Shown here piece by piece: positions 6,297 through 25,214 of a DNA stretch of 32,000 nt (its first letter is position 1; every line of letters starts with the position of its first letter). Both the position numbers and the translations under genes were made by a program. The notes below the pieces were generated by a model. The model worked only from the letters and a program-made list of their open reading frames with translations, had not been told where the DNA came from and searched no databases. The stretch is from NCBI GenBank assembly GCA_021650915.1, contig CP091279.1, forward strand, positions 450,001-482,000, read 5' to 3'. The DNA comes from Candidatus Brocadia sp. Its GTDB lineage: Bacteria > Planctomycetota > Brocadiia > Brocadiales > Brocadiaceae.

Positions 6297-6821
6297 TTGA
6301 AACGCAAAAGGCAGTTTTTTATGTTGGTGCATTTGGAGGAATTACATCTGCCTGCATCAAATTCTAAAGTCACGTTATTTCATCAGAAAATTCTTGCCCA
6401 CGAACTTACCCTCAAACGTCCCGCTCACGAACTGAGAAAATTAAATCAAACCCTCGCTTCTTCTACCGTTGACCTGAATCCTCGCCAGATAGACGCCGCC
6501 TTATTTGCCTTCAATTGTCCTCTTTCAAGAGGTGCAATCCTTTGTGATGAAGTCGGTCTTGGAAAGACTATCGAAGTGGGACTGATAATAAGCCAGCTCT
6601 GGGCAGAAGGGAAAAGGAAGATAATCATCGTAGTCCCTGCATCATTGAGAAAACAATGGCAGAATGAACTCTTTGAGAAATTTAACATCCCCGGTGTTAT
6701 TGTCGATGGCTCAGAATACAAAACATCGAAAAAGGATGCATTAAACCCTTTTGATCGTGACAACCTTGCAGTTATTGTCTCCACCCCTTTTGCCTTTCCA
6801 AAAAGGATTAAAAGCAAGTGA
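6297..6821 (+). pseudogene. N-terminal stub (174 codons) of an SNF2-family helicase
   Basis: ..VDLNPRQIDAALFAFNCPLSRGAILCDEVGLGKTIEVGLIISQLWAEGKRKIIIVVPASLRKQWQNELFEKF.. contains the Q-motif and Walker A/motif I-Ia of SNF2 ATPases (canonical LADEVGLGKTIEAG). Such proteins are normally >800 aa. Here the ORF stops after motif Ia, and its stop overlaps the hsdR start (6818). Confidence 0.7.
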
Positions 6822-8182
6822 GTAATAAAAAAGATTTGTCGGAAAGAGATATATGCACGCAGTTCATCTTGCCTGCGCTGGTTAAGTCCGGATGGGATGT
6901 TGAGAAGCAAGTCCGGGAAGAGGTCTTCTTTACAGACGGTCGAATCTTTGTCAAAGGCAAAAAGACTGTCCGGGGTAAAAGAAAACGTGCCGACTTTATT
7001 CTCTACCTCAAACCGAATATTCCCTTAGCTGTTATTGAAGCAAAGGACAACAATCATTCCGTAGGAGCCGGATTACAGCAGGCGTTAGAATATGCAGAGA
7101 TGCTTGACGTTCCGGTTGCGTTTAGCTCAAACGGCGATGGCTTTGTTCAGCATGATCGCTCTGGTTTCTCTGCGCAAATCGAAACGGAATTGTCTTTAGA
7201 TGCCTTCCCCTCTTCTGCCGAACTTTGGAAGTTGTATAAAAAGTATAAGAGGATTGAAACGCCCGAGCAGGAAGAGATCGCTTCTTTTAATTATTTCTTT
7301 GACGGATCGGGGCGGGCGCCTCGTTATTATCAGCAGAGAGCCATTAACCGAACCGTGGAAGCCGTCGCCCGCGGGCAGAACAGAATCCTCCTCGTGATGG
7401 CTACCGGAACGGGAAAGACCTATACCGCCTTCCAGATTATTTATCGTCTCTGGAAAAACGGACGTAAAAAACGGATTCTCTTTCTGGCGGACCGCAATGT
7501 GCTTATCGACCAGACCAGACGCAATGACTTTAAACATTTCAAAGATCGCATGACGGTCATCAAAAAGAAAAAGATTGATAAGGCATTTGAGATATACCTT
7601 GCCCTTTATCAAGGATTAACAAACTATAACGAGGACAAGGACGCATACAAAGAGTTTAGCAGAGATTTCTTTGATCTTGTGGTAGTTGACGAGTGCCATC
7701 GTGGAAGCGCTGCCGCCGATAGCGCATGGAGGGCTATCCTTGATTATTTTCGTTCTGCGACGCATATCGGCCTTACTGCAACGCCGAGAGAGACAAGAGA
7801 GATATCCAATATCGCATATTTCGGCGAACCGGTTTATACCTACACGCTCAGACAAGGTATCGAAGATGGATTTCTGGCCCCCTATAAAGTTATACGCGTT
7901 GGATTCAATGTAGATCTTGAAGGTTGGCGTCCGGAAGCAGGCAAGACAGATAAAGACGGCATCGAGGTTGATGACCGTATTTATAACACCAGGGATTTCG
8001 ATAAAAACCTCGTGATTGATGAGCGAACAAAACTGGTCGCCAAAAAGGTGTCGGAATATTTACGGAAAACAAACCGATACGATAAAACGATAGTTTTTTG
8101 TGTGGATATTGAACACGCAGAGCGGATGAGGCAAGCCATTGCTAACGAAAACCCGGATTTGGCGCTTGAAAACGGTAAGTAG
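6818..8182 (+). pseudogene. hsdR: Type I restriction enzyme R subunit, N-terminal part (nuclease domain plus helicase motifs I-III), interrupted by IS
   Basis: (M)[26 protein letters not shown].. is a classic HsdR N-terminus. A PD-(D/E)xK region is present (RADFILY...AVIEAKD). The sequence also carries [10 protein letters not shown], Walker [11 protein letters not shown], and DEAH-box VVDECHRG. The frame ends ..[10 protein letters not shown] then TAG, where the TAG is created by the IS junction. Confidence 0.9.
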
Positions 8183-8365
8183 TGTTTGAACGGAAACCCC
8201 CCAGAGCCCTGTAAAGTAAGGAGAAGCTGGTGAAAAATGTTCATGAAAGTCATTGAATTTTTTCGGGTAAAAGGGTAAAATATGGCGAAAATGAAGGGAT
8301 TCTGGGTATAAAGAGTCCAAATATTCGGTTCATTAACCCACTAGCCAAAGGACATTCGATAGAAG

Positions 8366-9106
8366 ATGAGAAAGAGATTTGAGCAGCAATTGAAGCTTGG
8401 CATCATACCCATTTCAGGGGTAAAACTGCCAATAAAGAGTCGAGATGAGCTACCACCGATACTGAGGGCGTTGCAACATATCTATGTTACACCGGAGTTG
8501 AACGAGGAGGTATTCCGGATATTAGAGGCGAAGGTAACGAAGGGGAAGAAAAAGACGGGAAGATATGGGATGGATTTATGGCATATTTTGGTGTTGTCGG
8601 TGGTAAGATTAGGGTTAGATGCCGATTATGACAGGTTGGAGGATTTTGCCAACCATCACAAACTTATCAGGCAGATAATGGGGGTTGAGACGGCATTTGG
8701 AGAGGCGAAGGTTTTTTCGATGCAGAGCATCAAGGACAATATAAGATTGTTGGATGAGGAGACCCTCAGGCAGATAAATGAAGTGGTGATATCATCGGGG
8801 CATCAGTTGGTTAAAAAAAAGGACGAAGGACTGTGTATTAAGGTGGATACGTATGTGTTAGAGACGAATGTACACTTTCCGACCGATATGAATTTATTGT
8901 GGGATGCGGGACGCAAGAGTCTGGACATGATAGAGGATGCAATAGAGGAAGGCATCCTGGCGGGGAAAGGATGGCGCAAGAGCAAATATTGGAGGAGAGA
9001 GTTAAAAAAGCTGATGAGGATAAGCGCAAAGGCGTCAAGCAGCGGGGGGGAAAAACAAGGAAGAGCATGTGAGGAGTTACTTGGAATTATCGAGGGGTTT
9101 GAGTGA
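8366..9106 (+). CDS. DDE transposase, N-terminal frame (ORF A) of the IS in hsdR
   Basis: 246 aa. ..KSRDELPPILRALQHIYVTPEL..GRYGMDLWHILVLSVVRLGLDADYDRLEDFANHH..VDTYVLETNVHFPTDMNLLWD.. (first catalytic D region). From memory it resembles proteins annotated as ISNCY-family transposases. The frame breaks just after the G7A5 tract at 9044-9055. Confidence 0.75.
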   Translation: MRKRFEQQLKLGIIPISGVKLPIKSRDELPPILRALQHIYVTPELNEEVFRILEAKVTKGKKKTGRYGMDLWHILVLSVVRLGLDADYDRLEDFANHHKLIRQIMGVETAFGEAKVFSMQSIKDNIRLLDEETLRQINEVVISSGHQLVKKKDEGLCIKVDTYVLETNVHFPTDMNLLWDAGRKSLDMIEDAIEEGILAGKGWRKSKYWRRELKKLMRISAKASSSGGEKQGRACEELLGIIEGFE

Positions 9107-9830
9107 AAAGATAGGAGCGAGTCTGTTAGCCATCTACGAAAAGGTGCTAACGACGAACCAGGTAGACAAGCATGCAGGGAAAATAGGGACACTGGAGTAT
9201 TTTCACGGGATGTTGAATAAACAGATAGACCTGGTGGAGAGAAGGGTGATCCGGGATGAGGTAATACCGGCGGCAGAAAAGGTTCATTCGTTGTTTGAGC
9301 CGCATACGGAGTGGCTGTACAAAGGCAAGTCAAACAAAAGGGTAGAGTTGGGACATAATATTCTGGTAGCAAGCGATCAGTGGGGTTTCATCGTGGACCA
9401 TGTGGTAGGAGAAAAACAGGCGGATGTATCGTTGGTAATTCCATTGGCAGATAGGTTGTTGAGCCGTTACGGAGAAGGCACAATAAAGAGTATAAGTTTT
9501 GATAAAGGTTTTTACAAGAAAGAGAATAAAGAGTTGCTGAGTTTGTATATACCAGAGGTAATCCTTCCCAAGAAGGGCAAGAAGAATAAGGCGGAACAGG
9601 AAGAGGAATCGGGTAAGACATTTAAGAAGCTAAGGCACAAGCACTCGGCGGTAGAATCGGATATCAATCGTTTGGAGCATCACGGCTTGGATAGGTGTCC
9701 GGACAAAGGGCTGCATGCCTTTAAAAGATATTGTGCAATGGGCGTGTTAGCTGCGAATTTGCACAAGCTGGGAAACGTGCTGCAGGAGAAGGCACGGAAG
9801 CAGTGCGAAAAGTTGCGAAAAGCCGCCTAA
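9069..9830 (+). CDS. DDE transposase, C-terminal frame (ORF B) of the IS in hsdR
   Basis: 253 aa, with the frame open from 9024. It overlaps ORF A in the +1 frame. ..ISFDKGFYKKENKELL.. is the second D region and ..RHKHSAVESDINRLEHHGLDRCPDKGLHAFKRYCAMGVLAANLHKLG is the E/K region typical of IS4/IS5-type DDE enzymes. ORF A and ORF B together form one transposase if one G is removed from the G7 run. Confidence 0.75.
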   Translation: MRSYLELSRGLSEKIGASLLAIYEKVLTTNQVDKHAGKIGTLEYFHGMLNKQIDLVERRVIRDEVIPAAEKVHSLFEPHTEWLYKGKSNKRVELGHNILVASDQWGFIVDHVVGEKQADVSLVIPLADRLLSRYGEGTIKSISFDKGFYKKENKELLSLYIPEVILPKKGKKNKAEQEEESGKTFKKLRHKHSAVESDINRLEHHGLDRCPDKGLHAFKRYCAMGVLAANLHKLGNVLQEKARKQCEKLRKAA

Positions 9831-10035
9831 GCAAGCAAAAAACACGAAGAAAAACAGTCTGCCGGGAGGCAGGTACGCCCAGACAAGGCTAAAATAAAGG
9901 GGAAAACAAGGGAAATATGTAAAAGAACAGTATTTTTGCCAAAAACCCTAATCTCAAATCTTAAAATTATCTATTGGTAAATAGAAAATCGACCTCGCAC
10001 TTTTACAAAAAGTGCGTTTTCGTTCAGACACTATG

Positions 10036-11076
10036 TATGTCATGCGCATTACCGGTGATGATGAGCAAGCCAAACGCGAGGTGGATAATTTCATAAATCC
10101 TGAGGAGCGTTATCCGGTTATCGCTACCACGTCAAAATTGATGACCACCGGCGTTGATGCACAGACCTGCAAATTGATCGTGCTTGATTCAAACATCAGG
10201 TCAATGACCGAGTTCAAGCAGATTATCGGACGCGGGACTCGTATTAACGAAGAGTATGGCAAGACGTTCTTTGCCATTATGGACTTTCGCAATGTGACAG
10301 ATCTTTTTGCGGATCCGGCTTTTGACGGCGATCCGGTTATGGTCAGGGAGGTTACGGGCGAAGACGAATTAACGGATCAGGATATTCATCCTGAAGAAGA
10401 CCAGGAGATTATTGATCCGGAGACTGGACGGCCCGTGGATTTTGAAGAAGAAACACCGGATGAATACCCCCCACCGGACATTATTCAGGGTGGTGAAATT
10501 GTGTCTGAGCCCCGGCAGAAGATATATGTGGCAGGGGTGGATGTTTCGGTGTTAAACGAGCGGGTTCAGCATCTGGACGCAAACGGAAACCTTATCACCG
10601 AAAGCCTCAAAGATTACACAAAAAAGGGCATCTTGCGGGAGTTCCGATCACTCGATGATTTCCTTACCCGATGGAACGGCGCTCATAAAAAGAAAGCGGT
10701 TATCGAGGAATTGGAATCGCAGGGGATTATTCCGGAAAACCTGATGTCAGGGGTAAAGAAGGATTTGGATGTATTTGACCTTATTTGCCACATTGCGTGG
10801 GACATGCCTGCGCTTACCCGTCGGGAGCGTGCGGAAAATGTAAAGAAGCGCAATTATTTCATGAAATATGGGGAGAAGGCGCGGAAGGTTATTGATGTCC
10901 TCCTGGATAAATATGCTGATGAGGGCATTGAAAATATAGAAGACCTTGCAATTTTGAGAATAGAACCGTTTAGTCAAATCGGGACGCCAACGGAAATCGT
11001 GCAGATATTCGGAGGCAGAGAGCAATATCTTCATGTTATTGAAGAACTGGAGCATGCACTCTATACAGCGGCGTAA
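10036..11076 (+). pseudogene. hsdR: Type I restriction enzyme R subunit, C-terminal part (helicase motifs V-VI plus C-terminal domain)
   Basis: YVMRITGDDEQAKREVDNFINPEERYPVIATTSKLMTTGVDAQTCKLIVLDSNIRSMTEFKQIIGRGTRI is the canonical HsdR motif V/VI block. The track ORF starts at 10012, but its first 8 codons are IS-end sequence. Confidence 0.9.
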
Positions 11077-11079
11077 AGG

Positions 11080-11100
11080 TCTCTCACAAAGTGCACAAAG
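11080..11100. repeat. Left arm of a 21-nt inverted repeat bracketing the GxxExxY gene (partner at 13559-13579)
   Basis: tctctcacaaagtgcacaaag. The reverse complement of 13559-13579 is tctctcacaaagtgcacagag. They match at 20/21, with 18 consecutive matches. The arm contains the tandem heptad cacaaag. Confidence 0.85.
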
Positions 11101-11115
11101 CCCACGGAGAAAAAA

Positions 11116-11526
11116 ATGAATGAAAATGAATTAAGTGAAAAAATTATTGGGTTGGCTATTAAAGTTCATTCTGCTTTGGGTCCTGGTCTTTTAGAATCCG
11201 CGTATGAAAAAGCGCTTGTTTTTGAGTTGAGCAGAAATGGTTATAAAGCAGAGGTGCAAAAAAGTATTTCAATAAATTATGAGGGAATAATCATAGATGA
11301 AGGATATCGGGCAGATATCGTCGTAAATGATATTGTTCTGATAGAATTAAAATCGGTTAAACAAATTGAGGATATTCATTTAAAACAGCTTTTAACTTAT
11401 TTGCGTCTTTCGGGCAAGAAACTGGGATTACTCATTAATTTTAACGAAATCTTGCTAAAGAATGGTATTCGACGAGTTATCAACGGAACTATAGAGCTGG
11501 CGCATAAGCGAAAAGATTCGTTGTAA
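11116..11526 (+). CDS. GxxExxY protein (PD-(D/E)xK nuclease-superfamily small protein)
   Basis: 136 aa. ..IIGLAIKVHSALGPGLLESAYEKALVFEL.. carries the eponymous G-x2-E-x2-Y motif. ..YRADIVVNDIVLIELKSVKQIEDIHLKQLLTYLRLSGKKLGLLINF.. is the D..ExK core. This family is often found inside type I R-M loci. Confidence 0.9.
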   Translation: MNENELSEKIIGLAIKVHSALGPGLLESAYEKALVFELSRNGYKAEVQKSISINYEGIIIDEGYRADIVVNDIVLIELKSVKQIEDIHLKQLLTYLRLSGKKLGLLINFNEILLKNGIRRVINGTIELAHKRKDSL

Positions 11527-11597
11527 ATCAGGGAGAAGAGGCGATAGGACGGGGTAATAATTTTGTAAAGTCTACAAAAAGATATCAAGAACGGCAG

Positions 11598-13512: not shown

Positions 13513-13558
13513 GCTTGTTTTTTAGTTTATGCGCAGGCTCTATATAGCACTTTGTGAA

Positions 13559-13579
13559 CTCTGTGCACTTTGTGAGAGA
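13559..13579. repeat. Right arm of the 21-nt inverted repeat (partner at 11080-11100)
   Basis: ctctgtgcactttgtgagaga. The local tandem gcactttgtga occurs at 13547-13557 and 13565-13575. The arm ends 9 nt before the hsdM ATG. Confidence 0.85.
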
Positions 13580-13587
13580 GAAACAAG

Positions 13588-15021
13588 ATGAAAAACATTG
13601 GAAATATCATAAAAACATTACAAAACATCATGCGTAAAGACCCCGGTGTTTCCGGGGACGCCCAGCGCATTGAGCAGTTGGGCTGGATGATCAGCCTCAA
13701 AATCCTTGACGACAAGGACAAAGAGATCGAGATTCTCAACGACAAATATGTCTCACCCATGCCAAAGAAATTGCAATGGCGGGCTTGGGCGGCTGATGAC
13801 GAAGGCATAACCGGAGATGAGCTTAAAAACTTTATTGACAGTGATTTGATACCAAGGCTCAAAAATCTCGATGTGAGTTCCGGCAATAAACGCGCCCTTA
13901 TAATCCGCGAGATATTTGACGGCACCAATAACTACATGAAGAACGGGACGATCATCCGTCAGGTGCTCAATGAATTAAACCAGATCGACTTTAATAATTT
14001 GGAAGACCGTCATGTCTTTGGCGATATCTATGAAACCATCCTGCGTGATCTTCAAAGTGCGGGAAATTACGGAGAGTTTTATACCCCACGCGCCTTAACA
14101 GAATTTATTACGGAAATGATCAACCCCAGGTTGGGCGAAAAGGTGCTGGATCCCGCCTGCGGCACCGGCGGATTCTTAACCAGCGCTATAGAAAATATCC
14201 GCAAACAAGATGTCAAAGGCGTTGAAGACCTTAAGACGCTGGAGAAAACCATTCATGGCATGGAATTCAAACCGCTTCCCTTCATGCTCTGCGTAACCAA
14301 TCTGATATTGCACGACATCGAAGTGCCAAATGTGGATTATACCGACAGCTTAAACCGCGAATATACCTCAATCGGACAAAAAGACCGGGTGGACGTCATC
14401 CTTGCCAATCCTCCTTTTGGCGCCTCGGTTACCGATGGGGCAGAGACCAACTTTCCCCAAAATTTTCGCACAACGGAAAGCGCCGATCTTTTCTTGATGC
14501 TTATGGTGCGATATCTGAAAGACGGCGGCCGTGCCGGCATTGTATTGCCGGATGGTTCGCTGACAGGAGAAGGTGTAAAACAGCGCATTCGCCAGCATTT
14601 TTTAGAGAATTGTAATCTTCATACTATTGTTCGTCTGCCAAATTCAGTCTTTCAACCGTATGCCAGTGTGGCGACCAATCTGCTCTTTTTTGAAAAAGGC
14701 AAACCGACAAAAGAAATCTGGTACTGGGAACACAAACTACCAGAAGGCGTTAAGGCATACAGTAAAACGAAGCCGATTCAAAAAAGCGAGTTTGACGGTC
14801 TTAAAAAATGGTGGAAGAAACGCAAGGAGAATGAACAGGCGTGGAAGGTGTCTATTGATGCGATTGCTGCAAATAGCTATAACCTCGACATAAAAAATCC
14901 GCATACGCCAGACGAAAAACACGTGTATACAAGCGCCGAACTGGTAACGATGCTCCACGAATCATTCCGTAAAAGCGATGGACTTCTTCAACAATTGAGA
15001 AAGGAGTTGGAGAATGGATAA
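13588..15021 (+). CDS. hsdM: Type I R-M system N6-adenine DNA methyltransferase subunit M
   Basis: 477 aa. The AdoMet motif I is VLDPACGTGGFL and the catalytic motif IV is ILANPPFGAS. An HsdM-type N-terminal domain is present (..DAQRIEQLGWMISLKILDD..). Its stop overlaps the next gene's ATG. Confidence 0.95.
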   Translation: MKNIGNIIKTLQNIMRKDPGVSGDAQRIEQLGWMISLKILDDKDKEIEILNDKYVSPMPKKLQWRAWAADDEGITGDELKNFIDSDLIPRLKNLDVSSGNKRALIIREIFDGTNNYMKNGTIIRQVLNELNQIDFNNLEDRHVFGDIYETILRDLQSAGNYGEFYTPRALTEFITEMINPRLGEKVLDPACGTGGFLTSAIENIRKQDVKGVEDLKTLEKTIHGMEFKPLPFMLCVTNLILHDIEVPNVDYTDSLNREYTSIGQKDRVDVILANPPFGASVTDGAETNFPQNFRTTESADLFLMLMVRYLKDGGRAGIVLPDGSLTGEGVKQRIRQHFLENCNLHTIVRLPNSVFQPYASVATNLLFFEKGKPTKEIWYWEHKLPEGVKAYSKTKPIQKSEFDGLKKWWKKRKENEQAWKVSIDAIAANSYNLDIKNPHTPDEKHVYTSAELVTMLHESFRKSDGLLQQLRKELENG

Positions 15022-16057
15022 CGCAGAAAATAAATCACAACTCATTATTTATCGGGCAGAAGATGGAAAAATTAAAATTGACGTTCGTTTTCAGGATGAA
15101 ACTGTCTGGCTGACTCAAAAATTAATGGCTGAATTATTTCAGACCACAATCGCCAACATTAATATTCATATTAAAAATGTCTTTGATGAGGGAGAACTCT
15201 CGCAAGATTCAGTTATTAAGGATTTCTTAATAACTGCCTCTGATGGGAAAAAGTATCACACAAACTTTTACAACCTGGATATGATCATATCGGTTGGATA
15301 TCGCGTTAAATCCCACGTCGCCACACGTTTCCGCCAATGGGCGACTCAGCAGTTAAGGGAATATATTGTCAAAGGGTTTGTGATGGATGATGAACGGCTT
15401 AAGCATGGCGCAAACATTGGTTCTGATTATTTTGACGAGCTTCTTGAACGTATCCGCGATATCCGTTCCAGTGAGAAACGTTTTTATCAAAAAATCCGGG
15501 ATATTTATAAGCTGGCAGTTGATTATGATCCGAAGGCTGAAGAAACCCTGGAATTTTTCAAAATTGTTCAAAACAAGCTCCATTTTGCTATATCCGGCAA
15601 GACGGCGGCAGAGATTATTTCCGGGCGGGCTGATGCGTCAAAACCCAACATGGGTCTTACTTCGTGGAAAGGCGCAAAGGTGCGCCAGGGCGATGTGACC
15701 ATTGCCAAGAATTACCTCAATGAAAAAGAAATGGAACAGCTTAACAGAATCGTGACTATGTACCTTGATTATGCTGAAGACCAGGCGAAACGCCACCGTC
15801 AGATATTCATGCGCGACTGGCGCAAAAAGCTTGACGCCTTTCTCAAGTTTAATGAACGCGATATCCTTGAGCATGCCGGAACTGTAACCAAAGAAGTTGC
15901 AGACGCACTGGCTTTGGAGCAGTATGAGGTATTTCATAAACAGCGGTTGAAGGATGAAGCCGAAGCAGAAGCGCTTGCCGATGATGAGGTATTGAAGGAA
16001 ATCGAACAGAAAGCGGCGAAACGATTATCGAAGAAAAAGGGGCGGAAGAATGGCTAA
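15014..16057 (+). CDS. rhuM: RhuM-family protein (virulence protein RhuM / Fic-DOC-associated family) embedded between hsdM and hsdS
   Basis: 347 aa. ..LIIYRAEDGKIKIDVRFQDETVWLTQKLMAELFQTTIANINIHIKNVFDEGEL..YNLDMIISVGYRVKSHVATRFRQWATQQLREYIVKGFVMDDERLK.. is the characteristic RhuM N-terminal block. It overlaps both neighbours by 8 nt. Confidence 0.85.
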   Translation: MDNAENKSQLIIYRAEDGKIKIDVRFQDETVWLTQKLMAELFQTTIANINIHIKNVFDEGELSQDSVIKDFLITASDGKKYHTNFYNLDMIISVGYRVKSHVATRFRQWATQQLREYIVKGFVMDDERLKHGANIGSDYFDELLERIRDIRSSEKRFYQKIRDIYKLAVDYDPKAEETLEFFKIVQNKLHFAISGKTAAEIISGRADASKPNMGLTSWKGAKVRQGDVTIAKNYLNEKEMEQLNRIVTMYLDYAEDQAKRHRQIFMRDWRKKLDAFLKFNERDILEHAGTVTKEVADALALEQYEVFHKQRLKDEAEAEALADDEVLKEIEQKAAKRLSKKKGRKNG

Positions 16058-17558
16058 GGTCTCTTACATCGATCATATAAAGAAGAACGATATCTCTGTG
16101 ATTTTGGCCGAAGTTATTTTTCGGAATTTAAAAAAAGATTATAAGTCTCTTCCTTTATTTGAATTGGCTGAAACCTTAAGTGGAGGTACGCCAAACAGAG
16201 CAAATCAAAGCTACTATGGCGGGAAAATTCCTTGGTTTAAATCTGGTGAGCTAAATGATTCAATAATTACCATGTCGGAAGAATTTATTACTGAAGAAGG
16301 ATTAAATAATTCTTCAGCAAAAGTATTTCCAAAAGGCACTCTACTCGTAGCTATGTACGGTGCTACTGCGGGGAAGACAGCAATTCTTGACATTGATGCG
16401 GCTACAAATCAAGCAATCTGTGCAGTTGTCCCTAAGAATAAAAGCATTCGGAAGGATTTTTTATTCTGGTTTTTGCGAGCACATCGATACTACTATATTG
16501 ATATAAGTCGTGGTGGTGCACAACCAAATATAAGTCAAACTGTTATTAAAAATACTGAAGTTCCGCTTATTGATGAAAATGAACAGAAAAGCATCGTGGA
16601 ATTTTTGACAAGGATTGAGAAAACAAAGGAAATAAACTATTCCCTAATTCCAAAACAATTGCATAAAACTATTAAACTAGCTTTTGAACATTTGGATTGC
16701 TTGCAAAAGTTAGAAAACGAAAATTTAAATCAGTCTTCTTATTTCTCCTTTCTTCGTCAATCCATTCTCCAGGAAGCCATCGAAGGCAAGCTTACAGCCA
16801 AATGGCGGAAGACGAATTCTGAGTTGATCAGCGGAGATAACCACGCCTCGAAATTGCTTGAGAAGATCAAAGCAGAAAAAGAGCGGCTCACGAAGAGCAC
16901 AAAGGGCGCGAAGAATGCAAAAGCACTACCACCCATCAGTGAAGAAAAAAAGCCGTTTGACTTGCCTGAGGGGTGGGCGTGGTGTCGTTTGGGAGAGGCA
17001 GCCCAAGGATTTGAATATGGTTCAAGTGCAAAGTCTATAAAAACAGGCAAAGTACCTGTTTTACGAATGGGAAACTTGCAGGACGGAGTCGTTGTTTGGG
17101 AGAATTTGGTTTATACAAATGATGATGGTGAAATACAACAATATTTACTAATGTCAGAAGACCTTCTTTTTAATAGAACTAATAGCAGAGAGTTGGTTGG
17201 GAAAACGGCACTCTTCGATTGTGAGGAAAAAGCAATCTATGCAGGATATATTGTTCGTTTTCATATGTGCGGGCAAATTAGTGCCCATTTTTCCAATTAT
17301 GTAATGAATTCAATTTATCACAGGAAATGGTGTAATATGGTAAAGGCCGATGCTCTTGGTCAATCAAATATAAATGCAACAAAATTGAGAGAATTTGTTT
17401 TCCCTCTTCCGCCTCTAGCTGAACAACAGGCTATTGTTGATTGCGTTGAGAAGCTGGTGGCCATGATCGACGAATTAGAAAAACAAGTATCCGCACGCAA
17501 AGAACAATCTGAAATGCTGATGCAGTCAGTTTTACGAGAGGCGTTTGCGAAAGGATGA
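16050..17558 (+). CDS. hsdS: Type I R-M specificity subunit S (two target-recognition domains)
   Basis: 502 aa with two TRDs, each carrying the ..GGTPNRANQSYYGGKIPWFKSGEL.. / ..FEYGSSAKSIKTGKVPVLRMGNL.. type entry. They are separated by a coiled-coil conserved region (LRQSILQEAIEGKLTAKWR..LLEKIKAEKERL). The protein closes with PPLAEQQAIVDCVEKLVAMIDELEKQV..LMQSVLREAF. Confidence 0.95.
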   Translation: MAKVSYIDHIKKNDISVILAEVIFRNLKKDYKSLPLFELAETLSGGTPNRANQSYYGGKIPWFKSGELNDSIITMSEEFITEEGLNNSSAKVFPKGTLLVAMYGATAGKTAILDIDAATNQAICAVVPKNKSIRKDFLFWFLRAHRYYYIDISRGGAQPNISQTVIKNTEVPLIDENEQKSIVEFLTRIEKTKEINYSLIPKQLHKTIKLAFEHLDCLQKLENENLNQSSYFSFLRQSILQEAIEGKLTAKWRKTNSELISGDNHASKLLEKIKAEKERLTKSTKGAKNAKALPPISEEKKPFDLPEGWAWCRLGEAAQGFEYGSSAKSIKTGKVPVLRMGNLQDGVVVWENLVYTNDDGEIQQYLLMSEDLLFNRTNSRELVGKTALFDCEEKAIYAGYIVRFHMCGQISAHFSNYVMNSIYHRKWCNMVKADALGQSNINATKLREFVFPLPPLAEQQAIVDCVEKLVAMIDELEKQVSARKEQSEMLMQSVLREAFAKG

Positions 17559-17651
17559 GGATGATTATGAAAGTGTTGCTTTATACAAAACTATTACAAT
17601 GCATTTAATTGTAAATTTTAGTAGCATTTTTTAGTTGATGTACAATTTTTT

Positions 17652-19367
17652 ATGACATATCAACGACAATTTTTATCTCGAAACAATTTCATTCTAGCCT
17701 TCGAGCGAATAGTTCGAGGTGGTAATAAAGAATACAAGCAGTTCTATCGGCATCTTTACCCGTCATATAATTTAAGTTTACAAGAAAATTTAGATGACCT
17801 TATACACGATATAAAATCTGGCACTTACAAACCAAGTAAACCTACAATTGTTTTTCAACCCAAAAAAACGCTGATTCTACGGCCTCTTGCCATATTATCT
17901 CTTACCGACCTTATTGTTTATCAAGCGATAACTAACCATATTGCAAACAAGTTTGAGTCTGAACAAACCAAATATGCGTTTAGCAAGAGTTTTGGGGCTA
18001 TTTACGCAGGAAAGCACAGCCCTTTTTTCTATCGTTCATGGAAGGTTTGTTACAGCGCTTATAACAAAGCTATTGAAAGGGCATTCAATACTGGTAATAC
18101 CTTTGTTGCCGACTTCGATCTTGTCTCATTTTATGAACTAATAGATCACAATTTACTAAAAGAAAAACTTGTTGAAAAAATTAAAAATGTGGAATTTTTG
18201 AATCTCTTATTTGAATGTCTCGAAAGATGGACTAGTGATGCTGCTGGGAGTCATATTCATCATGGTATTCCTCAGGGACCAGAGCCATCTGCCTTTCTTG
18301 CAGAGTGTTTTCTTTTTCATTTTGATGCTAAACATTTTAAAGATGTTAAATATTTCCGGTACGTTGATGATATAAAATTAATGGCTAAAAGCGATATTCC
18401 TTTGCGACGTGCACTGCTTCACCTGGACTTATCATCAAAAGAATTGGGACTTGTTCCACAAGCTCAAAAAATAGAGCTTCGAGAAACTACATGCCTTGAA
18501 GAAGTCCTAAAAAATATTCCAAGTTCTTTAGTACTACATATCGAAGAAAATATTGGTAATAAATTATCTCAACACAAACTATTAAATATGCTCAGGAAAA
18601 GCATTAAAAGGTTGAATAAACAGATGGTAATTGATGATGTTACGAAATTTAAGTATTCCTTGGTCAGGCTTGATCCGCGAAAGGATGTACTTAAGAAAAT
18701 TACTCCATTACTCGCGCATCGTCCAGACCTTTCTGGAATTTTTGCAAGTTATTTGAAGAAGTTCCCAAATAATAAATTAGCAGCCGATATTTTACTTGAA
18801 ACACTCAGAACAGACCCAATTTATGATGCGGCAGCAACAAATTATATTGATGCCATGGATATCTGTGAGCCAAACAATAATCAATATCCTTATAGACGTG
18901 TAATACAAACTGCAAATAGAAGGTCTGTAGAAAAAAGTATTTTAATAAAAATTGCATCTCAAGTATATAAAGGACGAAGGGTGGGTGCTAAAGATGCTGC
19001 AAAAATTATAGAGAAAGAGGAGCATCCAATCGTCTGTAGCATCCTTATTCATAGATTATTTGGGGATTCTGGTAGTGCTCCATATAAGATCGGGCATATC
19101 AAGACATTAATACAACAAAAGAGTTATGAAAAAGATGCCAACTTAGCTCGATACTGTGCCTCATTGTTATTTTTGAACTTTTCATGGAATGAGTTAAAGG
19201 GATGGAAACCAGGAAGTAAAACTCATCAGTCTGTAAAATTATTGATGTTTGGATTAGGTCTAAGAGCAAGAATGCCAAAAAAGACAACCGTACTGGATAC
19301 CTTTTTCAAAGATCGTATGAAGATTGGAATATCCATCTCGTGGCGAAAAGCTTTGGGTAAAGATTAG
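17652..19367 (+). CDS. Reverse transcriptase of the defence-associated UG/Abi type (AbiA-like): RT domain plus helical-repeat (alpha-Rep-like) region
   Basis: 571 aa. The RT motifs are in order: ..KKTLILRPLAILSLTDLIVYQAI.. (1/2), FVADFDLVSFYELIDH (A, ~18102-18149), HHGIPQGPEPSAFLAECFL (B, from ~18258), and FRYVDDIKLMA (C, YVDD at 18360-18371). The C-terminal ~280 aa look like helical repeats (..ITPLLAHRPDLSGIFASYLKKFPNNKLAADILLETLRTDPIYDAAATNYIDAM..). There is no maturase/X or En domain and no flanking intron or retron RNA structure. The gene is visibly AT-rich. It ends at TAG 19365-19367, which is in frame with the next ORF. Confidence 0.85.
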   Translation: MTYQRQFLSRNNFILAFERIVRGGNKEYKQFYRHLYPSYNLSLQENLDDLIHDIKSGTYKPSKPTIVFQPKKTLILRPLAILSLTDLIVYQAITNHIANKFESEQTKYAFSKSFGAIYAGKHSPFFYRSWKVCYSAYNKAIERAFNTGNTFVADFDLVSFYELIDHNLLKEKLVEKIKNVEFLNLLFECLERWTSDAAGSHIHHGIPQGPEPSAFLAECFLFHFDAKHFKDVKYFRYVDDIKLMAKSDIPLRRALLHLDLSSKELGLVPQAQKIELRETTCLEEVLKNIPSSLVLHIEENIGNKLSQHKLLNMLRKSIKRLNKQMVIDDVTKFKYSLVRLDPRKDVLKKITPLLAHRPDLSGIFASYLKKFPNNKLAADILLETLRTDPIYDAAATNYIDAMDICEPNNNQYPYRRVIQTANRRSVEKSILIKIASQVYKGRRVGAKDAAKIIEKEEHPIVCSILIHRLFGDSGSAPYKIGHIKTLIQQKSYEKDANLARYCASLLFLNFSWNELKGWKPGSKTHQSVKLLMFGLGLRARMPKKTTVLDTFFKDRMKIGISISWRKALGKD

Positions 19368-19388
19368 CATGACGCAGAAAGAAGGTGT

Positions 19389-19778
19389 TTGCGATTACAG
19401 CAACTTTTGGTAGGAGATCCCACTGCAAAAATTTTAATGTTAGACACATTCAATGAGGTACTTCTCCAATGTTTTTCCAGAAAGCACAAACAATTAACTT
19501 CGCAGTATTCTAAGGCAGCTGGTAATAAGCCACACCCAGATTTTGGTAATTGGTTAAATCATTCTCAATTGGCAATGGTATTACCAAAAGGAATCCAATG
19601 GTTTCAAGAAGTACATAACAATCGTGTTAAAGCCGATCTCGCCCATGCAAAGATAAAAGGAGGTAAAACAAAAGGAAAACCTACAAAGCCAATATCATAT
19701 GAAAAAGCCGATAAGATAGTAAAACGTGCTAAAATAGCATGGGCCGAATTAATTTCGGAGTGGAAGAAAATATTATAG
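19389..19778 (+). CDS. In-frame continuation of the RT gene: small helical domain with a HEPN-like R-x6-H motif (possible AbiA-type C-terminal HEPN)
   Basis: It is in the same reading frame as the RT (19389-17652 = 1737 = 3 x 579). Only one stop (TAG 19365-67) and 7 sense codons (HDAERRC) separate the two ORFs. The motif ..WFQEVHNNRVKADLAHAK.. has R at 19623-25 and H at 19644-46, which fits HEPN Rx4-6H at its upper limit. There is no convincing RBS or ATG of its own (the track start is TTG). The domain call is tentative. Confidence 0.45.
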   Translation: MRLQQLLVGDPTAKILMLDTFNEVLLQCFSRKHKQLTSQYSKAAGNKPHPDFGNWLNHSQLAMVLPKGIQWFQEVHNNRVKADLAHAKIKGGKTKGKPTKPISYEKADKIVKRAKIAWAELISEWKKIL

Positions 19779-20448
19779 AGGAATCAGCCTTTAACTTTCT
19801 ATTGAACCTCTTTCTTATTAACACATTAAAAGTAAAGCAATTCTGTTCAGCTTACTCAACCTTTTCAAGAACAAAAGTTTTTAGATTTGAACTGAAGGTA
19901 TGGCCAAATATAACATTTACAAAATCGAGAAGGCCAAGGAACCAAGCTTGCTTGAAAAACTACAAACTGTCGGCCTCTCTCTTGCTGCTCAGAAAAGTGT
20001 TGGCGGTTTTAGCCTTTCGTTTTATTTTTCAAAAGAACCGGAGGACATTGATATTTGGTGGGCCGATTTGTACAAAGATTTCTGAAATCAAATCATTGAT
20101 TTTCTTGATGAAACTTGCTGAGTGGCAAAGACAATGTTCTAACGCGGGATATGAGGCTATTGTTCGTGTAGGATATAGACAGAAATAGGCTGCCATCGAA
20201 TTAGTTTCGCAGGATAGGCGAGGCCGAGCGAACGCAACGATGTTGTTTGTCAGCAAAGCCTTTGGCATGCAAGACGGTCAAATGTCGGCTTTCAATGCCA
20301 GTGTGGCAAACTTCAGTGCTGATATTTGAAATATGAATCGTTTTTTATCAAAATGATTTGATAGAATATCGCTTAACTCAAGCAAAGAGTTATAGTGCTT
20401 ATTTCTCGATATCAAACTTCTAAAATTAAAAGCCATTTTAAAAGATTC

Positions 20449-20492: not shown

Positions 20493-20753
20493 ATGAGTTC
20501 GACAGTACAAAAGGCAAAAAAGGCAAAAAAGATAACTATTTCTTTACCAACGGAAATTTTAAAAGAAGTTGAGGAATTAGAGAAAAAACTAAAAATGCCA
20601 AAATCGGAAATTTTAAGTAAGGCTCTTGAAAAATTTTCGAGGGATTACAAGGCAAAAAAACTACAAAAAATTGCTAAAATGATGGCCCCTGAATACATGT
20701 TGGATAGCGATCTTGTAGCGATGACTTCTCTTGATTCTGAGGAATTCAGATGA
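20493..20753 (+). CDS. Ribbon-helix-helix (CopG/MazE-like) antitoxin
   Basis: 86 aa. KKITISLPTEILKEVEELEKKLKMPKSEILSKALEKF is an RHH fold signature. It has an AGGAGG RBS, and its stop overlaps the toxin ATG (ATGA at 20750). Confidence 0.8.
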   Translation: MSSTVQKAKKAKKITISLPTEILKEVEELEKKLKMPKSEILSKALEKFSRDYKAKKLQKIAKMMAPEYMLDSDLVAMTSLDSEEFR

Positions 20754-21088
20754 AGCAAAAAGAAATATGGTTAATAAATTTAGACCCATCAATTGGAGCA
20801 GAAATTAAAAAAACCAGACCTTGCGTTATTTTGAATGATGATAGCATAGGTGTTTTACCGCTCAAGGTCGTTGCGCCTATTACTGATTACAAAGAAAAGT
20901 ATGAAATAGTGCCATGGATGGTACAACTCATTCCAGATAAATTAAATAACCTGAAAAAAATTTCAGTAATAGATGTATTTCAGGTGAGGTCTGTTTCGGA
21001 AAAAAGGTTGATAAGGAAATTGGGTGTTATTAGAGAAGATGATATCCTGAAAGCAAAAGAGGCACTGAAATTGGTATTTGGCCTATGA
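20750..21088 (+). CDS. mazF: MazF/PemK-family endoribonuclease toxin
   Basis: 112 aa. MKQKEIWLINLDPSIGAEIKKTRPCVILNDD..LPLKVVAPITD.. is the canonical PemK/MazF N-terminal pattern (GxE/KxxKxRPxVIL). Confidence 0.9.
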   Translation: MKQKEIWLINLDPSIGAEIKKTRPCVILNDDSIGVLPLKVVAPITDYKEKYEIVPWMVQLIPDKLNNLKKISVIDVFQVRSVSEKRLIRKLGVIREDDILKAKEALKLVFGL

Positions 21089-21660: not shown

Positions 21661-21954
21661 ATGAAAAACCTTGAGAAAATAAAGGAAATTATTGCTAAAC
21701 ATAAAAACAAATTACATGATAAATATTCCGTTATAGAGATTGGGATTTTTGGTTCATATGTGAGAGAAGAACAAAAGGAGACAAGTGATGTAGACATTTT
21801 GGTTGAGTTTGAAAAACCAGTAAGCCTGCTTCAAATAGTTTCTCTTGAAAATTATCTTTCTGATATTCTCGGAGTCAAAGTTGATGTTGTTCCTAAAAAA
21901 AATATTCGTAAAGAACTTAAGGATTATATCTTGAAGGAGGCAGTTCCTGTATGA
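21661..21954 (+). CDS. mntA: Minimal nucleotidyltransferase antitoxin MntA (type VII TA)
   Basis: 97 aa. IGIFGSYVREEQKETSDVDILVEF matches the GSxxRGx(n)SDxDxxV NTase signature. It overlaps the downstream HEPN gene (ATGA at 21951). Confidence 0.9.
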   Translation: MKNLEKIKEIIAKHKNKLHDKYSVIEIGIFGSYVREEQKETSDVDILVEFEKPVSLLQIVSLENYLSDILGVKVDVVPKKNIRKELKDYILKEAVPV

Positions 21955-22304
21955 AAAGGAACGCAAAGCTTTACATCAGCGACATCCTTGAATATATGGA
22001 AAGGGCAGAAAGCCATATTAAGAGTCTCGGCTTTGAGGAATTTCTTAAAGAAGAGAAAACATGTGATGCGGTTATAAGGTGCATCGAAGTTATCGGGGAA
22101 GCTACTAAAAACATACCTGACGAGATAAGAAGTAAATATCACTTTATCCCATGGCGTGATATGGCAGGTATGAGGGATAAAATAATTCATGCTTACTTTA
22201 CTGTGGATTTTGAGACAGTTTGGCTTGTTGTAAAAGAAGAAATCCCAAGGTTAAAGCCAATGATAAAAAGGGTTTCGGAGGATTTAGAGAACGAATTGAG
22301 ATGA
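21951..22304 (+). CDS. hepT: HEPN-domain (DUF86) toxin HepT
   Basis: 117 aa. ..WRDMAGMRDKIIHAYFTVDFETVW.. contains the R-x4-H-x-Y HEPN catalytic motif. Confidence 0.9.
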   Translation: MKRNAKLYISDILEYMERAESHIKSLGFEEFLKEEKTCDAVIRCIEVIGEATKNIPDEIRSKYHFIPWRDMAGMRDKIIHAYFTVDFETVWLVVKEEIPRLKPMIKRVSEDLENELR

Positions 22305-22350: not shown

Positions 22351-22373
22351 AGAGAGCATGGGTGGATAAAAAA

Positions 22374-22577
22374 ATGAAAATTCAAGTAATCTTAGAACCA
22401 AGTGATGAAGGGGGCTTTACGGCAATCGTTCCTTCACTTCCCGGTTGTATAAGTGAAGGCAATACGAAGGAGGAGGCATTAAAAAATATCAGAGAAGCCA
22501 TTGAATTATATCTCGAACCAGTTGACGATGATCTGAGGTTTAGTCCAGATGCACAGGTCTTAGAAATTGCCATATGA
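22374..22577 (+). CDS. hicB: HicB-family (UPF0150) antitoxin
   Basis: MKIQVILEPSDEGGFTAIVPSLPGCISEGNTKEEALKNIREAIELYLE is the typical HicB N-terminal RNase-H-like fold sequence. I prefer ATG 22374 over the track's GTG 22362. The stop overlaps the next ATG (ATGA). Confidence 0.85.
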   Translation: MKIQVILEPSDEGGFTAIVPSLPGCISEGNTKEEALKNIREAIELYLEPVDDDLRFSPDAQVLEIAI

Positions 22578-22955: not shown

Positions 22956-25009
22956 GTGCCGACCTACCCTCTTGACGCATGCAGGGGGAAGTGCGAAAAT
23001 GCTCGCATGCTTCTCCGGGAAAAGACACGAACGAAAGATGGAAAAACCCACCGTTATTGGAGCATGGTAGAGAACCGCCGGGTCAGCGGAAGAAGGGTGG
23101 TGCAGCGGCAGGTTCTCTCTTTGGGAGAACTCAATGACAATCAACGGGCTGGGTGGGTTCGGACGATAGAGACGGTGTCGGGTAAAGAACCCAGGCCAAG
23201 ACAACTGGCGTTGTTTCCCCGGACGACCGAGAAGCCAGGCCGATACCGGATGGTGAGACAGTCCGGATGAGATTGGACAAAATAGAGCTGCGCCATCCGC
23301 GGGAGTGGGGAGCGAGCTGGTTGGGATTGTATGTATAGTATTACTGTATAAAAACTTCTTTTTTCTGTGAGTTTTTTCACAAACCCCTTTCAGGAGGTAC
23401 CGTTTTTTATGAGTGAAAGATTGCTTCGCTTCACTCGCAATGACAACATGCAGTGTACCATCAAAGTGCATGGCCGGTGTCATTGCGAGGGCCTTTTCCG
23501 AAGCAATCTCCCCGCTTTCATAAAGGAAATTTGGTTGCGGCTGTGCCGCGCTATGGAATATGCTGGAACTGGACACATTCTGGAGGATGCGTCTGCCGTC
23601 AAGCCGGAAGGGGACAAGCTGGTTGAATATACTGAAGGCGCTTGTCTGTTACCGGTTGATCGATCCGGGAAGCGAATTTCGTTTTCACCGTGAGTGGTAC
23701 GTGCGGAGCGCAACAGGCGATCTGCTGGGAGAGGATTATTCCCTGGCGCAGAAGGACAAGGCGTATCGTTGTTTGGATTTGTTGCTTGAGCATCGGGACG
23801 AGCTGTTTGCCTATTTAAAGGAGAAGTGGGGCAAGCTCTTTGGGGCGAAGTACGATGTGCTGCTGTATGATTTGACGAGTACGTATTTTGAAAAGTGACC
23901 CACCTCCGACTGGATCGGGGAGTAAGAAACGGTTTGGATATAGTCGGGACAAACGTTCGGATTGCGTGCAGGTGGTAGTGGCATTGGTGTTAACGCCGGA
24001 AGGATTTCCCGTTGCCTACGAAGTGTATCCGGGCAATACCAGAGACACCGCAACGCTGGAGGAATTTCTGGATCGGATTGAAAAGCAGTATGGGAAATTC
24101 CGGCGCACCTGGCTCATGGATAGAGGTATTCCAACGGAGGAGATGTTGGAAAAGATGCGTGAGCGAGGGATTGATTATTTGGTTGGTACTCCGAAGGGGC
24201 ATTTGACGAGAGTAGAAAAACCGCTGCTCGAACAAACCTGGATGCGGGCGAGGGAGAGCGTCCGCGTGAAAGTTCTTCGGCAGGAATCGGAGTTTTACGT
24301 TTACGTGGAAAGCCATGACCGGGTGTCTAAGGAGCGTGCCATGCGTAGGCGCAGACTCAGACGTTTGTGGATGGGCCTGCGCGAACTTCGCAATCGAAAA
24401 GCCCTCACGCGCGATGACCTGCTCATGCATATTGGCGCGTTAAAGAAAGAAGCCGGACGAGACTACAGACTGGTCACGATCTCCATTCCCAAACCGCAGG
24501 AACCGGTCAATGAGAATACGTTCCGGTTCAGTTTGGATCGGGAACGCCTGAGGCAGGCGTATCGGCGCGAGGGGCGTTATTTGCTTCGTTCCAACATGCA
24601 GGCCGCCGCGCCAGAAACCGTCTGGGAAAATTATTTGCTGTTGACGCGGATAGAACAGGCATTTAAGGACTTGAAGGGGTCTCTTTCCGTCCGCCCCCTA
24701 TGGCATCAATTGGAACGGAGAATTGAAGCCCATATCTTTGTTTCCTTTTTGGCTTTTTGTCTCCACACGACACTGCGCAATCTTGCGCGGGGGAGGGCCG
24801 GAGGGCTGACGTCTGAAGCGATTTTGGAAAAACTGTCGGGCATTCAAATGATAGACGTTCATTTACCGACCACGGATGGCCGTCATATTGTCATGAGTCG
24901 TTATACCCAGCCGGAGAAGGACGTTTTACTCCTTTTGGCACAATTGGGATTAACGCTTCCTGAACAACCGCCGCCCAAGGTTTACGCATCCGGACAGGTC
25001 GGCCTGTAG
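22956..25009 (+). pseudogene. IS1634-family DDE transposase broken into at least 3 frames (track fragments 22956-23270, 23560-23898, 23888-25009)
   Basis: The N-terminus ..LLREKTRTKDGKTHRYWSMVENRRVSGRRVVQRQVLSLGEL.. is typical of IS1634. It continues in another frame as ..RMRLDKIELRHPREWGASWLGLY. A 218-nt insertion follows, then LWNMLELDTFW..YDLTSTYFEK* with a shift at the T4/A4 tract 23886-23894. The last frame reads ..KRFGYSRDKRSDCVQVVVALVLTPEGFPVAYEVYPGNTRD...RPLWHQLERRIEAHIFVSFLAF. Confidence 0.8.
23333..23550. repeat. ~218-bp non-coding insertion (MITE-like) carrying a long imperfect hairpin, nested in the IS1634-like transposase gene
   Basis: It interrupts ..WLGLY|LWNMLELD... The hairpin arms are agattgcttcgcttcactcgcaatgac (23418-23444) and gtcattgcgagggccttttccgaagcaatct (23479-23509). 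The outer 11 nt and inner 11 nt of the arms pair perfectly around an internal bulge. This is the widespread cattgcgag...gaagcaatc repeat type that yields spurious LLRF(A/T)RNDN and VIASEAKQS peptides, both of which appear in track ORFs here. The insertion ends are approximate. Confidence 0.6.
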
Positions 25010-25127
25010 TGCCGACCTTTTTGCATGACCCCTTGATTTTCCTGGCTCAGAGGGTTGCATACCCCTCGAATTGCGAAAGTCGGGTTAATCAGTTTCTTTG
25101 CAGTTAACGGCTACGGAGTCTCTCCGC

Positions 25128-25136
25128 TTGAATCGT
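25128..25136. repeat. Left copy of the 9-bp target-site duplication of the ISAs1-like element
   Basis: ttgaatcgt is immediately followed by the IS end cagggctacgtcaag. An identical 9-mer lies at 27178-27186. Confidence 0.9.
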
Positions 25137-25214
25137 CAGGGCTACGTCAAGTATAAGCGCAAGTACTGACACGTAAAAAAGAAAAGGAATAAACTGGCTT
25201 TTTCAAAATGGTTC

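Follow-up and report, generated by a model that had tools for sequence, protein, structure and literature searches.

In a 32,000-nucleotide (nt) stretch of a Candidatus Brocadia sp. contig (CP091279.1, positions 450,001 to 482,000; hereafter the window), the gene directly behind hsdS encodes a reverse transcriptase (RT) that, judging from its profile match, belongs to UG19, an already published family of Class 1 UG/Abi RTs. Codon 572 of this gene is an in-frame TAG. We consider it reasonably probable, at roughly 60%, that a recent nonsense mutation has disabled the UG19 RT, leaving a young pseudogene in a defence island of Brocadia that insertion sequences (IS) are eroding. The UG19 family is already known; what is new is the amber allele, together with the repeated occurrence of an amber at the same codon in a second lineage.

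According to this reading, the UG19 RT, which sits just downstream of a type I restriction-modification (R-M) operon, belongs to an AT-rich island of defence and toxin-antitoxin genes in Candidatus Brocadia. A recent TGG-to-TAG change at codon 572 would halt translation eight residues into the first helix of the C-terminal domain, leaving a product of 571 amino acids (aa) devoid of that domain. The truncated protein is most likely inactive, by likeness to AbiA, which needs its HEPN domain for dimerisation and polymerase activity, and the lesion in the RT gene might be one of several in an island that is being dismantled. The features of the locus are listed below in window coordinates. L001 is the syntenic locus of the closest intact relative, whose 90%-identical protein is P0001.

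17559..17651, + strand: spacer between hsdS and the RT gene, AT-rich, 93 nt; not conserved with syntenic L001, the blastn homology block beginning at window position 17651
17652..19364, + strand: first 571 codons of the UG19 RT; RT fingers and palm at about aa 1-300, alpha-helical repeats at about aa 305-555, and the start of the C-terminal domain (the first 8 residues of its first helix)
19365..19367, + strand: in-frame TAG, codon 572; TGG (Trp) in the closest intact genes, a single G-to-A transition
19368..19778, + strand: frame of the C-terminal domain; 136 sense codons and the natural TAG stop at 19776-78
19389..19391, + strand: alternative start TTG (L579), the first in frame after the TAG and the one chosen by JGI annotators; 129-aa product without the invariant E576
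19437..19439, + strand: first in-frame ATG after the TAG (M596, 'MLDTFNE'); 113-aa product without most of the first helix

The interrupted UG19 gene and its C-terminal domain

The upstream open reading frame (ORF) runs from an ATG at 17652 through 571 sense codons to the TAG at 19365-67, as read from the ORF list, the sequence and its translation. Seven sense codons (19368-19388) separate this TAG from the TTG at 19389, with an offset of 1737 = 3 x 579. The RT motifs RPL, FVADFDLVSFY, GIPQGPEPSAF and RYVDD (18357-18371) are found in the 571-aa ORF, and the part encoded after the TAG, hereafter the tail, holds NNRVKADLAHAK, with R658 at 19623-25 and H665 at 19644-46. An initial annotation of the window, made from the letters alone, had given these coordinates, the frame arithmetic, the RT motifs and a 93-nt gap after hsdS (which ends at 17558), and all of them hold. 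Its statement that the tail has neither an ATG nor a ribosome-binding site of its own must be amended as to the ATG, since one is present in frame at 19437-39; the 113-aa ORF that begins there is annotated by NCBI as KKO21096.1. As to the binding site, the AGAAGG located 3 nt before the TTG at 19389 is coding sequence for a conserved 'ERRC' and is also found in the intact L001 gene. A scan for promoters and terminators around the RT gene yielded nothing better than shuffled sequence.

That both ORFs descend from one gene of about 708 codons, as was initially proposed, is borne out by the homologues, which are contiguous. The fused 708-aa sequence, used as a query, is covered over 100% of its length by more than 100 proteins, the best being 90% and 89% identical, and because each of them is 700-711 aa long, the existence of a single fused gene is beyond chance. 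Rather than ending where the 571-aa product does, these proteins read through the position of the stop. On alignment, the three closest intact genes, namely those of L001 (P0001), of L123 (P0002) and of P0319, have TGG as codon 572. In the corresponding column, the two closest relatives have W, and others have W, L, F, V, A or R. Among 74 loci drawn without regard to length, it holds W in 27, L in 22 and a stop in none. The invariant residues of the C-terminal 136 aa are all retained in the window sequence.

The family assignment is based on the PADLOC profile RT_UG19, which the 571-aa ORF matches with E=3.9e-122 (407 bits), the next group being UG21 (4.7e-48). Intact P0001 matches this profile from position 5 to 561 of 562 (E=2.6e-130). 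In contrast, the truncated ORF reaches only position 487, and the last 75 positions are matched only when the tail is attached, which argues that the tail belongs to the UG19 model. In Pfam, the 571-aa product matches RVT_1 alone (E=9e-10). The invariant RT columns of alignments of 31 and 69 sequences are all kept in the window gene. In the AlphaFold 2 (AF2) model of P0001, the RT is followed over residues 307-555 by a run of helices, the repeat domain that is a hallmark of Class 1. A Foldseek search with this whole model returned group II intron RTs, AbiA, UG15/DRT4, AbiK, Abi-P2, DRT6 and DRT9; the PADLOC and Pfam matches, the AF2 model and the Foldseek matches to AbiA, AbiK, Abi-P2, UG15/DRT4 and group II intron RTs together are the basis on which we delimited the RT part.

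Other affiliations were considered. The NCBIfam models for group II intron RTs, retrons and defence-associated RTs (DRT) all score far below their cutoffs with the window RT, for instance 85.7 bits against a cutoff of 300 for group_II_RT_mat and 22 against 235 for retron_St85. With these scores below cutoff and the far higher UG19 score, a retron, a group II intron RT and an unclassified RT were ruled out. AbiA does not appear within the 25 best of 50 PADLOC matches. The description of the protein as AbiA-like is thus apt at the level of the class, by structure, but not as family membership, as UG19 is the best profile. The architecture initially proposed for it, an RT, helical repeats and an additional C-terminal domain typical of Class 1 UG/Abi proteins, agrees with the PADLOC match, the P0001 model and the Foldseek results.

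In its published description (Mestre et al. 2022, NAR, PMC9226505), UG19 is assigned to the Class 1 UG/Abi RTs and has a C-terminal domain termed 'unknown'. That domain either is fused to the RT ('UG19-large') or has a co-located gene of its own ('UG19-small', cluster 1465), and was reported to have 'very distant homology with HEPN', while the role of UG19 in defence is a prediction from the inspection of defence-island loci (PMC9226505). As both forms are thus on record, the suggestion that the window holds a diverged, unclassified RT, or its best candidate for an undescribed system, does not stand. By analogy with other Class 1 Abi RTs, the intact UG19 protein is predicted to make DNA by protein-primed, untemplated synthesis, and its C-terminal domain might serve in oligomerisation or as an effector.

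As for the tail, the AF2 model of P0001, computed with 69 homologues, has a mean predicted local distance difference test (pLDDT) score of 88.7 and a predicted template modelling (pTM) score of 0.86. The RT domain and the helical repeats, which extend to about residue 555, are followed by helices 564-584, 590-611, 616-623, 631-643 and 648-662 (the latter with H655 and R658), a loop with H665, and helices over 683-707. Codon 572 falls within helix 564-584 and not in a linker. Residues D598, N601, P629, G632, H655 (19614-16), R658, H665, G675 and T678 of the tail are invariant in our alignments. The initial annotation had noticed a conserved R-x6-H motif, and the alignments confirm it. The tail contains H655-x2-R658-x6-H665, of which R658-x6-H665 is invariant in 69 full-length sequences. 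In a set of 20 tail sequences, H665 is invariant and R658 is present in at least 90% (P0133 has T), and H-x2-R-x6-H persists in the most distant UG19 clade as 'HQKRLESDLSH'. When 1.84 billion cluster representatives were scanned in full with a HMMER profile, 186 proteins proved to contain the tail domain. Among the 150 best matches listed, it forms the C-terminus of proteins of about 685-740 aa or occurs in short ORFs, and the three long proteins checked against Pfam carry an RT domain. The tail is a UG19-specific C-terminal helical domain of about 145 aa.

Its identification as a HEPN RNase, which had been put forward from the motif, is not sustained by sequence profiles, and similarity at the fold level is sub-threshold only. 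The tail has no match in Pfam, NCBIfam or PADLOC, and Pfam detected no HEPN domain in 20 tail homologues (at E up to 10) or in distant relatives. Alignment of the tail with the window's own HepT by hhalign gave a probability of 0.4%, and a tail-profile search of the sequences of the Protein Data Bank (PDB) returned no HEPN chain. A model of the domain alone (P0122, pLDDT 90) found no PDB match at E<1 with Foldseek; below that threshold, the list comprises generic helical bundles as well as the HEPN proteins sacsin (3o10), HI0074, Csm6 and YutE. A short R-x6-H motif by itself does not establish homology, and with the motif present, no profile match and Foldseek hits at E>1 only, membership of the tail in the HEPN superfamily is unproven.

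Age and recurrence of the amber codon

The stop is found well beyond the window. Records of the exact 571-aa product come from about 28 contigs of NCBI, JGI and several Logan assemblies of different sequencing runs, the NCBI records being KKO21097.1 (Candidatus Brocadia fulgida) and UJS21147.1 (Ca. Brocadia sp., 4.05-Mb contig). The NCBI assembly GCA_000987375.1 and a JGI metagenome are among the sources of the identical TAG allele, and four independent Candidatus Brocadia assembly contigs (L002-L005), all with the TAG, show 0 differences from the window over 2127 nt. A sequencing or assembly artefact in a gene that is really intact would appear as just such a one-base difference from close relatives. 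However, because the identical allele occurs in independent assemblies and its product on about 28 contigs, we regard an artefact as exceedingly improbable.

To be read against a neutral expectation taken as about 4 non-synonymous changes per synonymous one, the changes on the window branch, polarised with L001 and L123, amount to 50 synonymous and 25 non-synonymous upstream of the stop and to 18 synonymous and 9 non-synonymous in the tail. The pairwise dN/dS relative to L001 is 0.13 upstream and 0.12 in the tail, and the latter carries no second lesion in the window. From the counts, we estimate that purifying selection acted on the tail over at least about 87% of the window branch, the stop covering at most about 13% of it. 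A tail without decay implies either a recent stop or continued use of the tail. We conclude that the stop is recent. Three replacements found only in the window gene, P4Q, A396T and D497N, introduce residues unseen in 28 homologues at highly conserved sites, and the two intact sister branches have none of this kind. Although this comparison is post hoc and involves small numbers, it gives a faint hint of relaxed constraint across the whole window gene.

A second UG19 gene, about 62% identical (P0096, locus L006; JGI 3300061535, Ga0597031_0008031), has a TAG (4241-4243) at the same column (…ALGGD*SDAERRC…) and an intact tail. Its sister P0323, from the same 90%-identity cluster, is intact (716 aa) with W at that column. 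Since each allele has an intact sister that is at least 90% identical, TGG changed to TAG twice, independently, and both changes are young. In the L006 tail, the ratio of non-synonymous to synonymous changes is 1.0 versus 0.6 upstream, which is no significant relaxation (p=0.22). The stop codon is not conserved across diverged homologues: among the loci drawn without regard to length there is none at this column, and only these two lineages carry the TAG. The bases after the stop differ, with TAG CAT GAC in the window and TAG TCG GAT in L006, and no readthrough context common to both was found. Reassignment of TAG was ruled out as well, since TAG terminates 5 of the 26 ORFs in the window, including the RT gene at its natural end. 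A tRNA scan of the window found none.

Lesions are also found elsewhere in the family. Stops or frameshifts at scattered positions are carried by 16 of the 67 full-length loci surveyed, several of which are long-read assemblies in which the lesion may be an error. The other in-frame stops (L036, L051, L039 and L017) are a TAA at column 436, a TGA at the nearly invariant Cys405, a TGA at 642 and a TGA at 553, and nonsense alleles appear to be common in UG19. Among close relatives, the P0002 lineage has an insertion near column 597 and a frameshift near column 360.

ORFs encoding the tail alone were considered as a natural two-gene system. We rejected this possibility, as every case with readable flanks is a lesion or a leftover. 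The 'stand-alone tail' of L117 results from an IS insertion. Those of L114-L116 are remnants without an intact RT alongside, as are those of L118 and L119, which adjoin an integrase. L122 has 1 nt inserted into a C4G4 run at about column 568, and L120 is noisy long-read sequence. In L121 (about 660-680), an out-of-frame deletion of alignment columns 407-568 has yielded a 436-aa RT ORF and a 109-aa tail ORF; this deletion allele is known from four contigs, in one of which a type I hsdR immediately precedes it. Break points seem to cluster just upstream of column 573, but as a search with the tail only favours short ORFs, this is not evidence. In a distant UG19 clade, P0231, P0234, P0244, P0252 and P0268 are stand-alone proteins that consist of the tail only (139-150 aa), with a start just ahead of the W564 equivalent. 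These may be true separate partner genes of the 'cluster 1465' type.

Competing explanations

Several observations weigh against a gene that is simply disabled. There is no signal of relaxation in the tail, whether in pairwise dN/dS or in branch-specific counts of amino-acid, synonymous and non-synonymous changes. The chance that two nonsense events share a codon is 0.4-1.2% under a mutational model applied to the L001 gene. It becomes 4-11% among five in-frame stops under the same model and, by our own extension of it, about 6-16% for the six stops finally counted (15 pairs), so that the amber codon shared by L006 and the window is suggestive, not significant. Moreover, the AbiA analogy crosses family boundaries, and since UG19 forms with the tail as a separate co-located ORF have been reported (PMC9226505), a two-piece system is not absurd. 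These observations feed an alternative in which the gene is functionally split, the tail still being made by low-level amber readthrough, as a little full-length protein, or by restart at the TTG (19389) or the ATG (19437), as a polypeptide of its own. The stop would thereby limit the dose of a costly effector, and the arrangement would be akin to UG19-small with its co-located tail gene. Neither the window tail nor that of L006 has a second lesion, their ratios of non-synonymous to synonymous changes are far below neutral, and the distant clade has tails of 139-150 aa that stand alone. However, both TAG alleles are young, having sisters at least 90% identical, and intact tails then need no selection. 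None of the 74 loci has a stop at column 572, and different bases follow the two TAG codons. In the window, TAG is an ordinary stop and no tRNA was found. The cut is also badly placed, because codon 572 lies in helix 564-584, natural tails start before W564 and the restarts lose E576, and the readable 'separate tail' ORFs go back to an IS insertion, a 1-nt insertion, a deletion or RT-less remnants. Silencing by a nonsense mutation and dosing by readthrough, both envisaged in the initial annotation, are inseparable by sequence alone; the evidence leans to silencing, and we view a functional split as unlikely, if still worth bearing in mind.

The 571-aa RT with its helical repeats might also have kept a function of its own, the tail having been lost adaptively to disarm a toxic or autoimmune effector. 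That ORF retains every invariant RT residue, the dN/dS of 0.13 upstream of the stop is low, and the fact that two lineages have each lost precisely the tail would be consistent with selection against the domain. Yet a low dN/dS over a long branch is uninformative on the short time elapsed since the stop, and the three unusual replacements at highly conserved upstream sites hint at relaxed constraint. In addition, AbiA loses its polymerase activity without its C-terminal domain (PMC11077055), and the UG19 tail is fused and highly conserved in all full-length homologues, all of which makes this explanation quite improbable. One may speculate, at long odds, that the Trp codon 572 is a recurrent, selected switch, the TGG-to-TAG change uncoupling or down-dosing an effector-like tail whose coding sequence is kept. 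If so, the window allele would keep a costly defence RT off or low in a way that a single G/A transition could reverse to 'on', or that leaks through amber readthrough, and it would offer a snapshot of 'large' fused UG/Abi genes becoming systems made of a small RT plus a separate tail. If the repeated amber at Trp572 is no coincidence, it would point to selection on the tail itself, be it for its cost, its toxicity or the control of its dose.

As it stands, the interrupted UG19 gene looks like the ordinary decay of a defence gene in an IS-ridden island of an anammox bacterium. For UG19, one of many RTs predicted to act in defence, the natural allele series, which comprises intact genes at 89-90% identity, an amber, an insertion and a frameshift, could guide work on the C-terminal domain. 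It also calls for caution, as the 'RT-small plus separate tail' cases of UG19 that we inspected are broken fused genes or leftovers and not a distinct architecture.

The surrounding island and known systems

The neighbours of the RT gene are as follows; hsdM, the rhuM-family gene and hsdS, which form the type I R-M operon upstream of the RT, were identified by Pfam on identical loci and by synteny with L001.

6818..11076, + strand: hsdR, split; aa 1-454 at 6818-8179 and aa 455-800 at 10036-11073 (tblastn with the intact 800-aa HsdR of L001)
13588..15021, + strand: hsdM
15014..16057, + strand: rhuM-family gene
16050..17558, + strand: hsdS
19900..20085, + strand: 61-aa remnant of the gene that follows the RT; aa 1-61 of a 185-aa L001 gene (weak DUF6119 match), 88.5% identity

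Genes on both sides of the RT have decayed: hsdR is split, an extra insert lies behind it, and the downstream gene is cut to 61 aa. The insert in hsdR, of about 1.85 kb, holds two ORFs, at 8366-9106 and at 9069-9830, the latter a DDE transposase ORF (Pfam DDE_Tnp_1), and no terminal inverted repeats of it were found. The restriction subunit HsdR is probably dead, while hsdM and hsdS look intact. Relative to L001, about 2.4 kb are added between hsdR and hsdM (11077-13587). This genomic context favours decay of the RT gene.

The position of the RT directly behind hsdS, which the initial annotation had pointed out, recurs in relatives. In L001 (GCA_046052845.1), where the intact gene is 90% identical to that of the window, the order is the same, with hsdR, hsdM, rhuM, hsdS and the RT. 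Genes of the hsd type flank the UG19 RT in at least 10 other fetched family loci, and in L041 (343-7078), it is enclosed by hsdR and hsdM of a type I R-M operon. As at least 10 other UG19 loci adjoin type I R-M genes, this is a recurring neighbourhood and not a one-off. The low G+C content that had been reported for the RT module is real, but the stretch concerned, with values of 0.35-0.39, covers about 16-23 kb of the window, including hsdS and the toxin-antitoxin genes, and not the RT alone.

Several other features of the window were noted. The insert between hsdR and hsdM contains a gene of the PD-(D/E)XK type (PDDEXK_3, 11116-11526) and a 556-aa transposase-like ORF (11671-13341), and the GC skew is strikingly positive (0.17-0.35) over 8-13 kb. 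The rhuM gene (15014-16057) overlaps both hsdM and hsdS. The gene arrangement is that of L001, with identities of 93% for hsdM, 55% for rhuM and 36% for hsdS, and given these differences the R-M operon is a mosaic. A run of toxin-antitoxin genes follows the RT, with an RHH/PemK pair (20493-21088), an MNT/HepT pair that includes a true HEPN toxin (21661-22304), and a lone HicB-like antitoxin (22362-22577) without an obvious HicA. Two further transposase genes are found within 23888-26582, the second of which (25215-26582) combines a DruA-like N-terminal region with DDE_Tnp_1_assoc and DDE_Tnp_1.

PrrC/EcoprrI and other second-line defence genes are embedded in type I R-M operons. The UG19 RT likewise adjoins hsd genes, but hsdR is broken in the window and the likeness seen is one of position.

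AbiK, Abi-P2, DRT4/UG15 and DRT6, which are Class 1 protein-primed, untemplated DNA polymerases, share the RT and helical-repeat core with UG19 (Foldseek E of about 1e-7 to 1e-9, query-normalised TM-scores of 0.32-0.41) and lack the UG19 C-terminal domain. AbiA of Lactococcus (8OZ7) has the same three-part layout and an R-x6-H motif, RNSNPVSH in AbiA and RVKADLAH in the window. Its Foldseek TM-score with the P0001 model, normalised by query length over the whole chain, is 0.42, with 13% identity. AbiA nevertheless belongs to another UG/Abi group, and the UG19 tail has no detectable sequence similarity to HEPN families. The HEPN domain of AbiA, although it contains R-x6-H, showed no RNase activity, and the R581A and H588A substitutions leave defence unaffected (PMC11077055). 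AbiA dimerises through this domain and, once deprived of it, is a monomer without polymerase activity (PMC11077055). Hence, even a true HEPN tail need not be a nuclease, since that of AbiA is structural.

The closest described systems are the two forms of UG19 itself (PMC9226505). Like UG19-large, which also occurs in defence islands, the window gene combines an RT, helical repeats and a fused C-terminal domain, and its intact relative matches the profile end to end; the difference is that in the window the fusion is broken by the TAG at codon 572. The annotation of two ORFs, of 571 aa and of 113 or 129 aa, makes the locus resemble UG19-small with its cluster 1465 partner. However, whereas the possible true stand-alone tails begin before the equivalent of W564, the restarts available in the window are at L579 or M596. 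Because the two window ORFs are in the same frame, separated by a single stop within a helix, and 90% identical to a fused gene, their two-ORF state represents a lesion of UG19-large and not a separate architecture.

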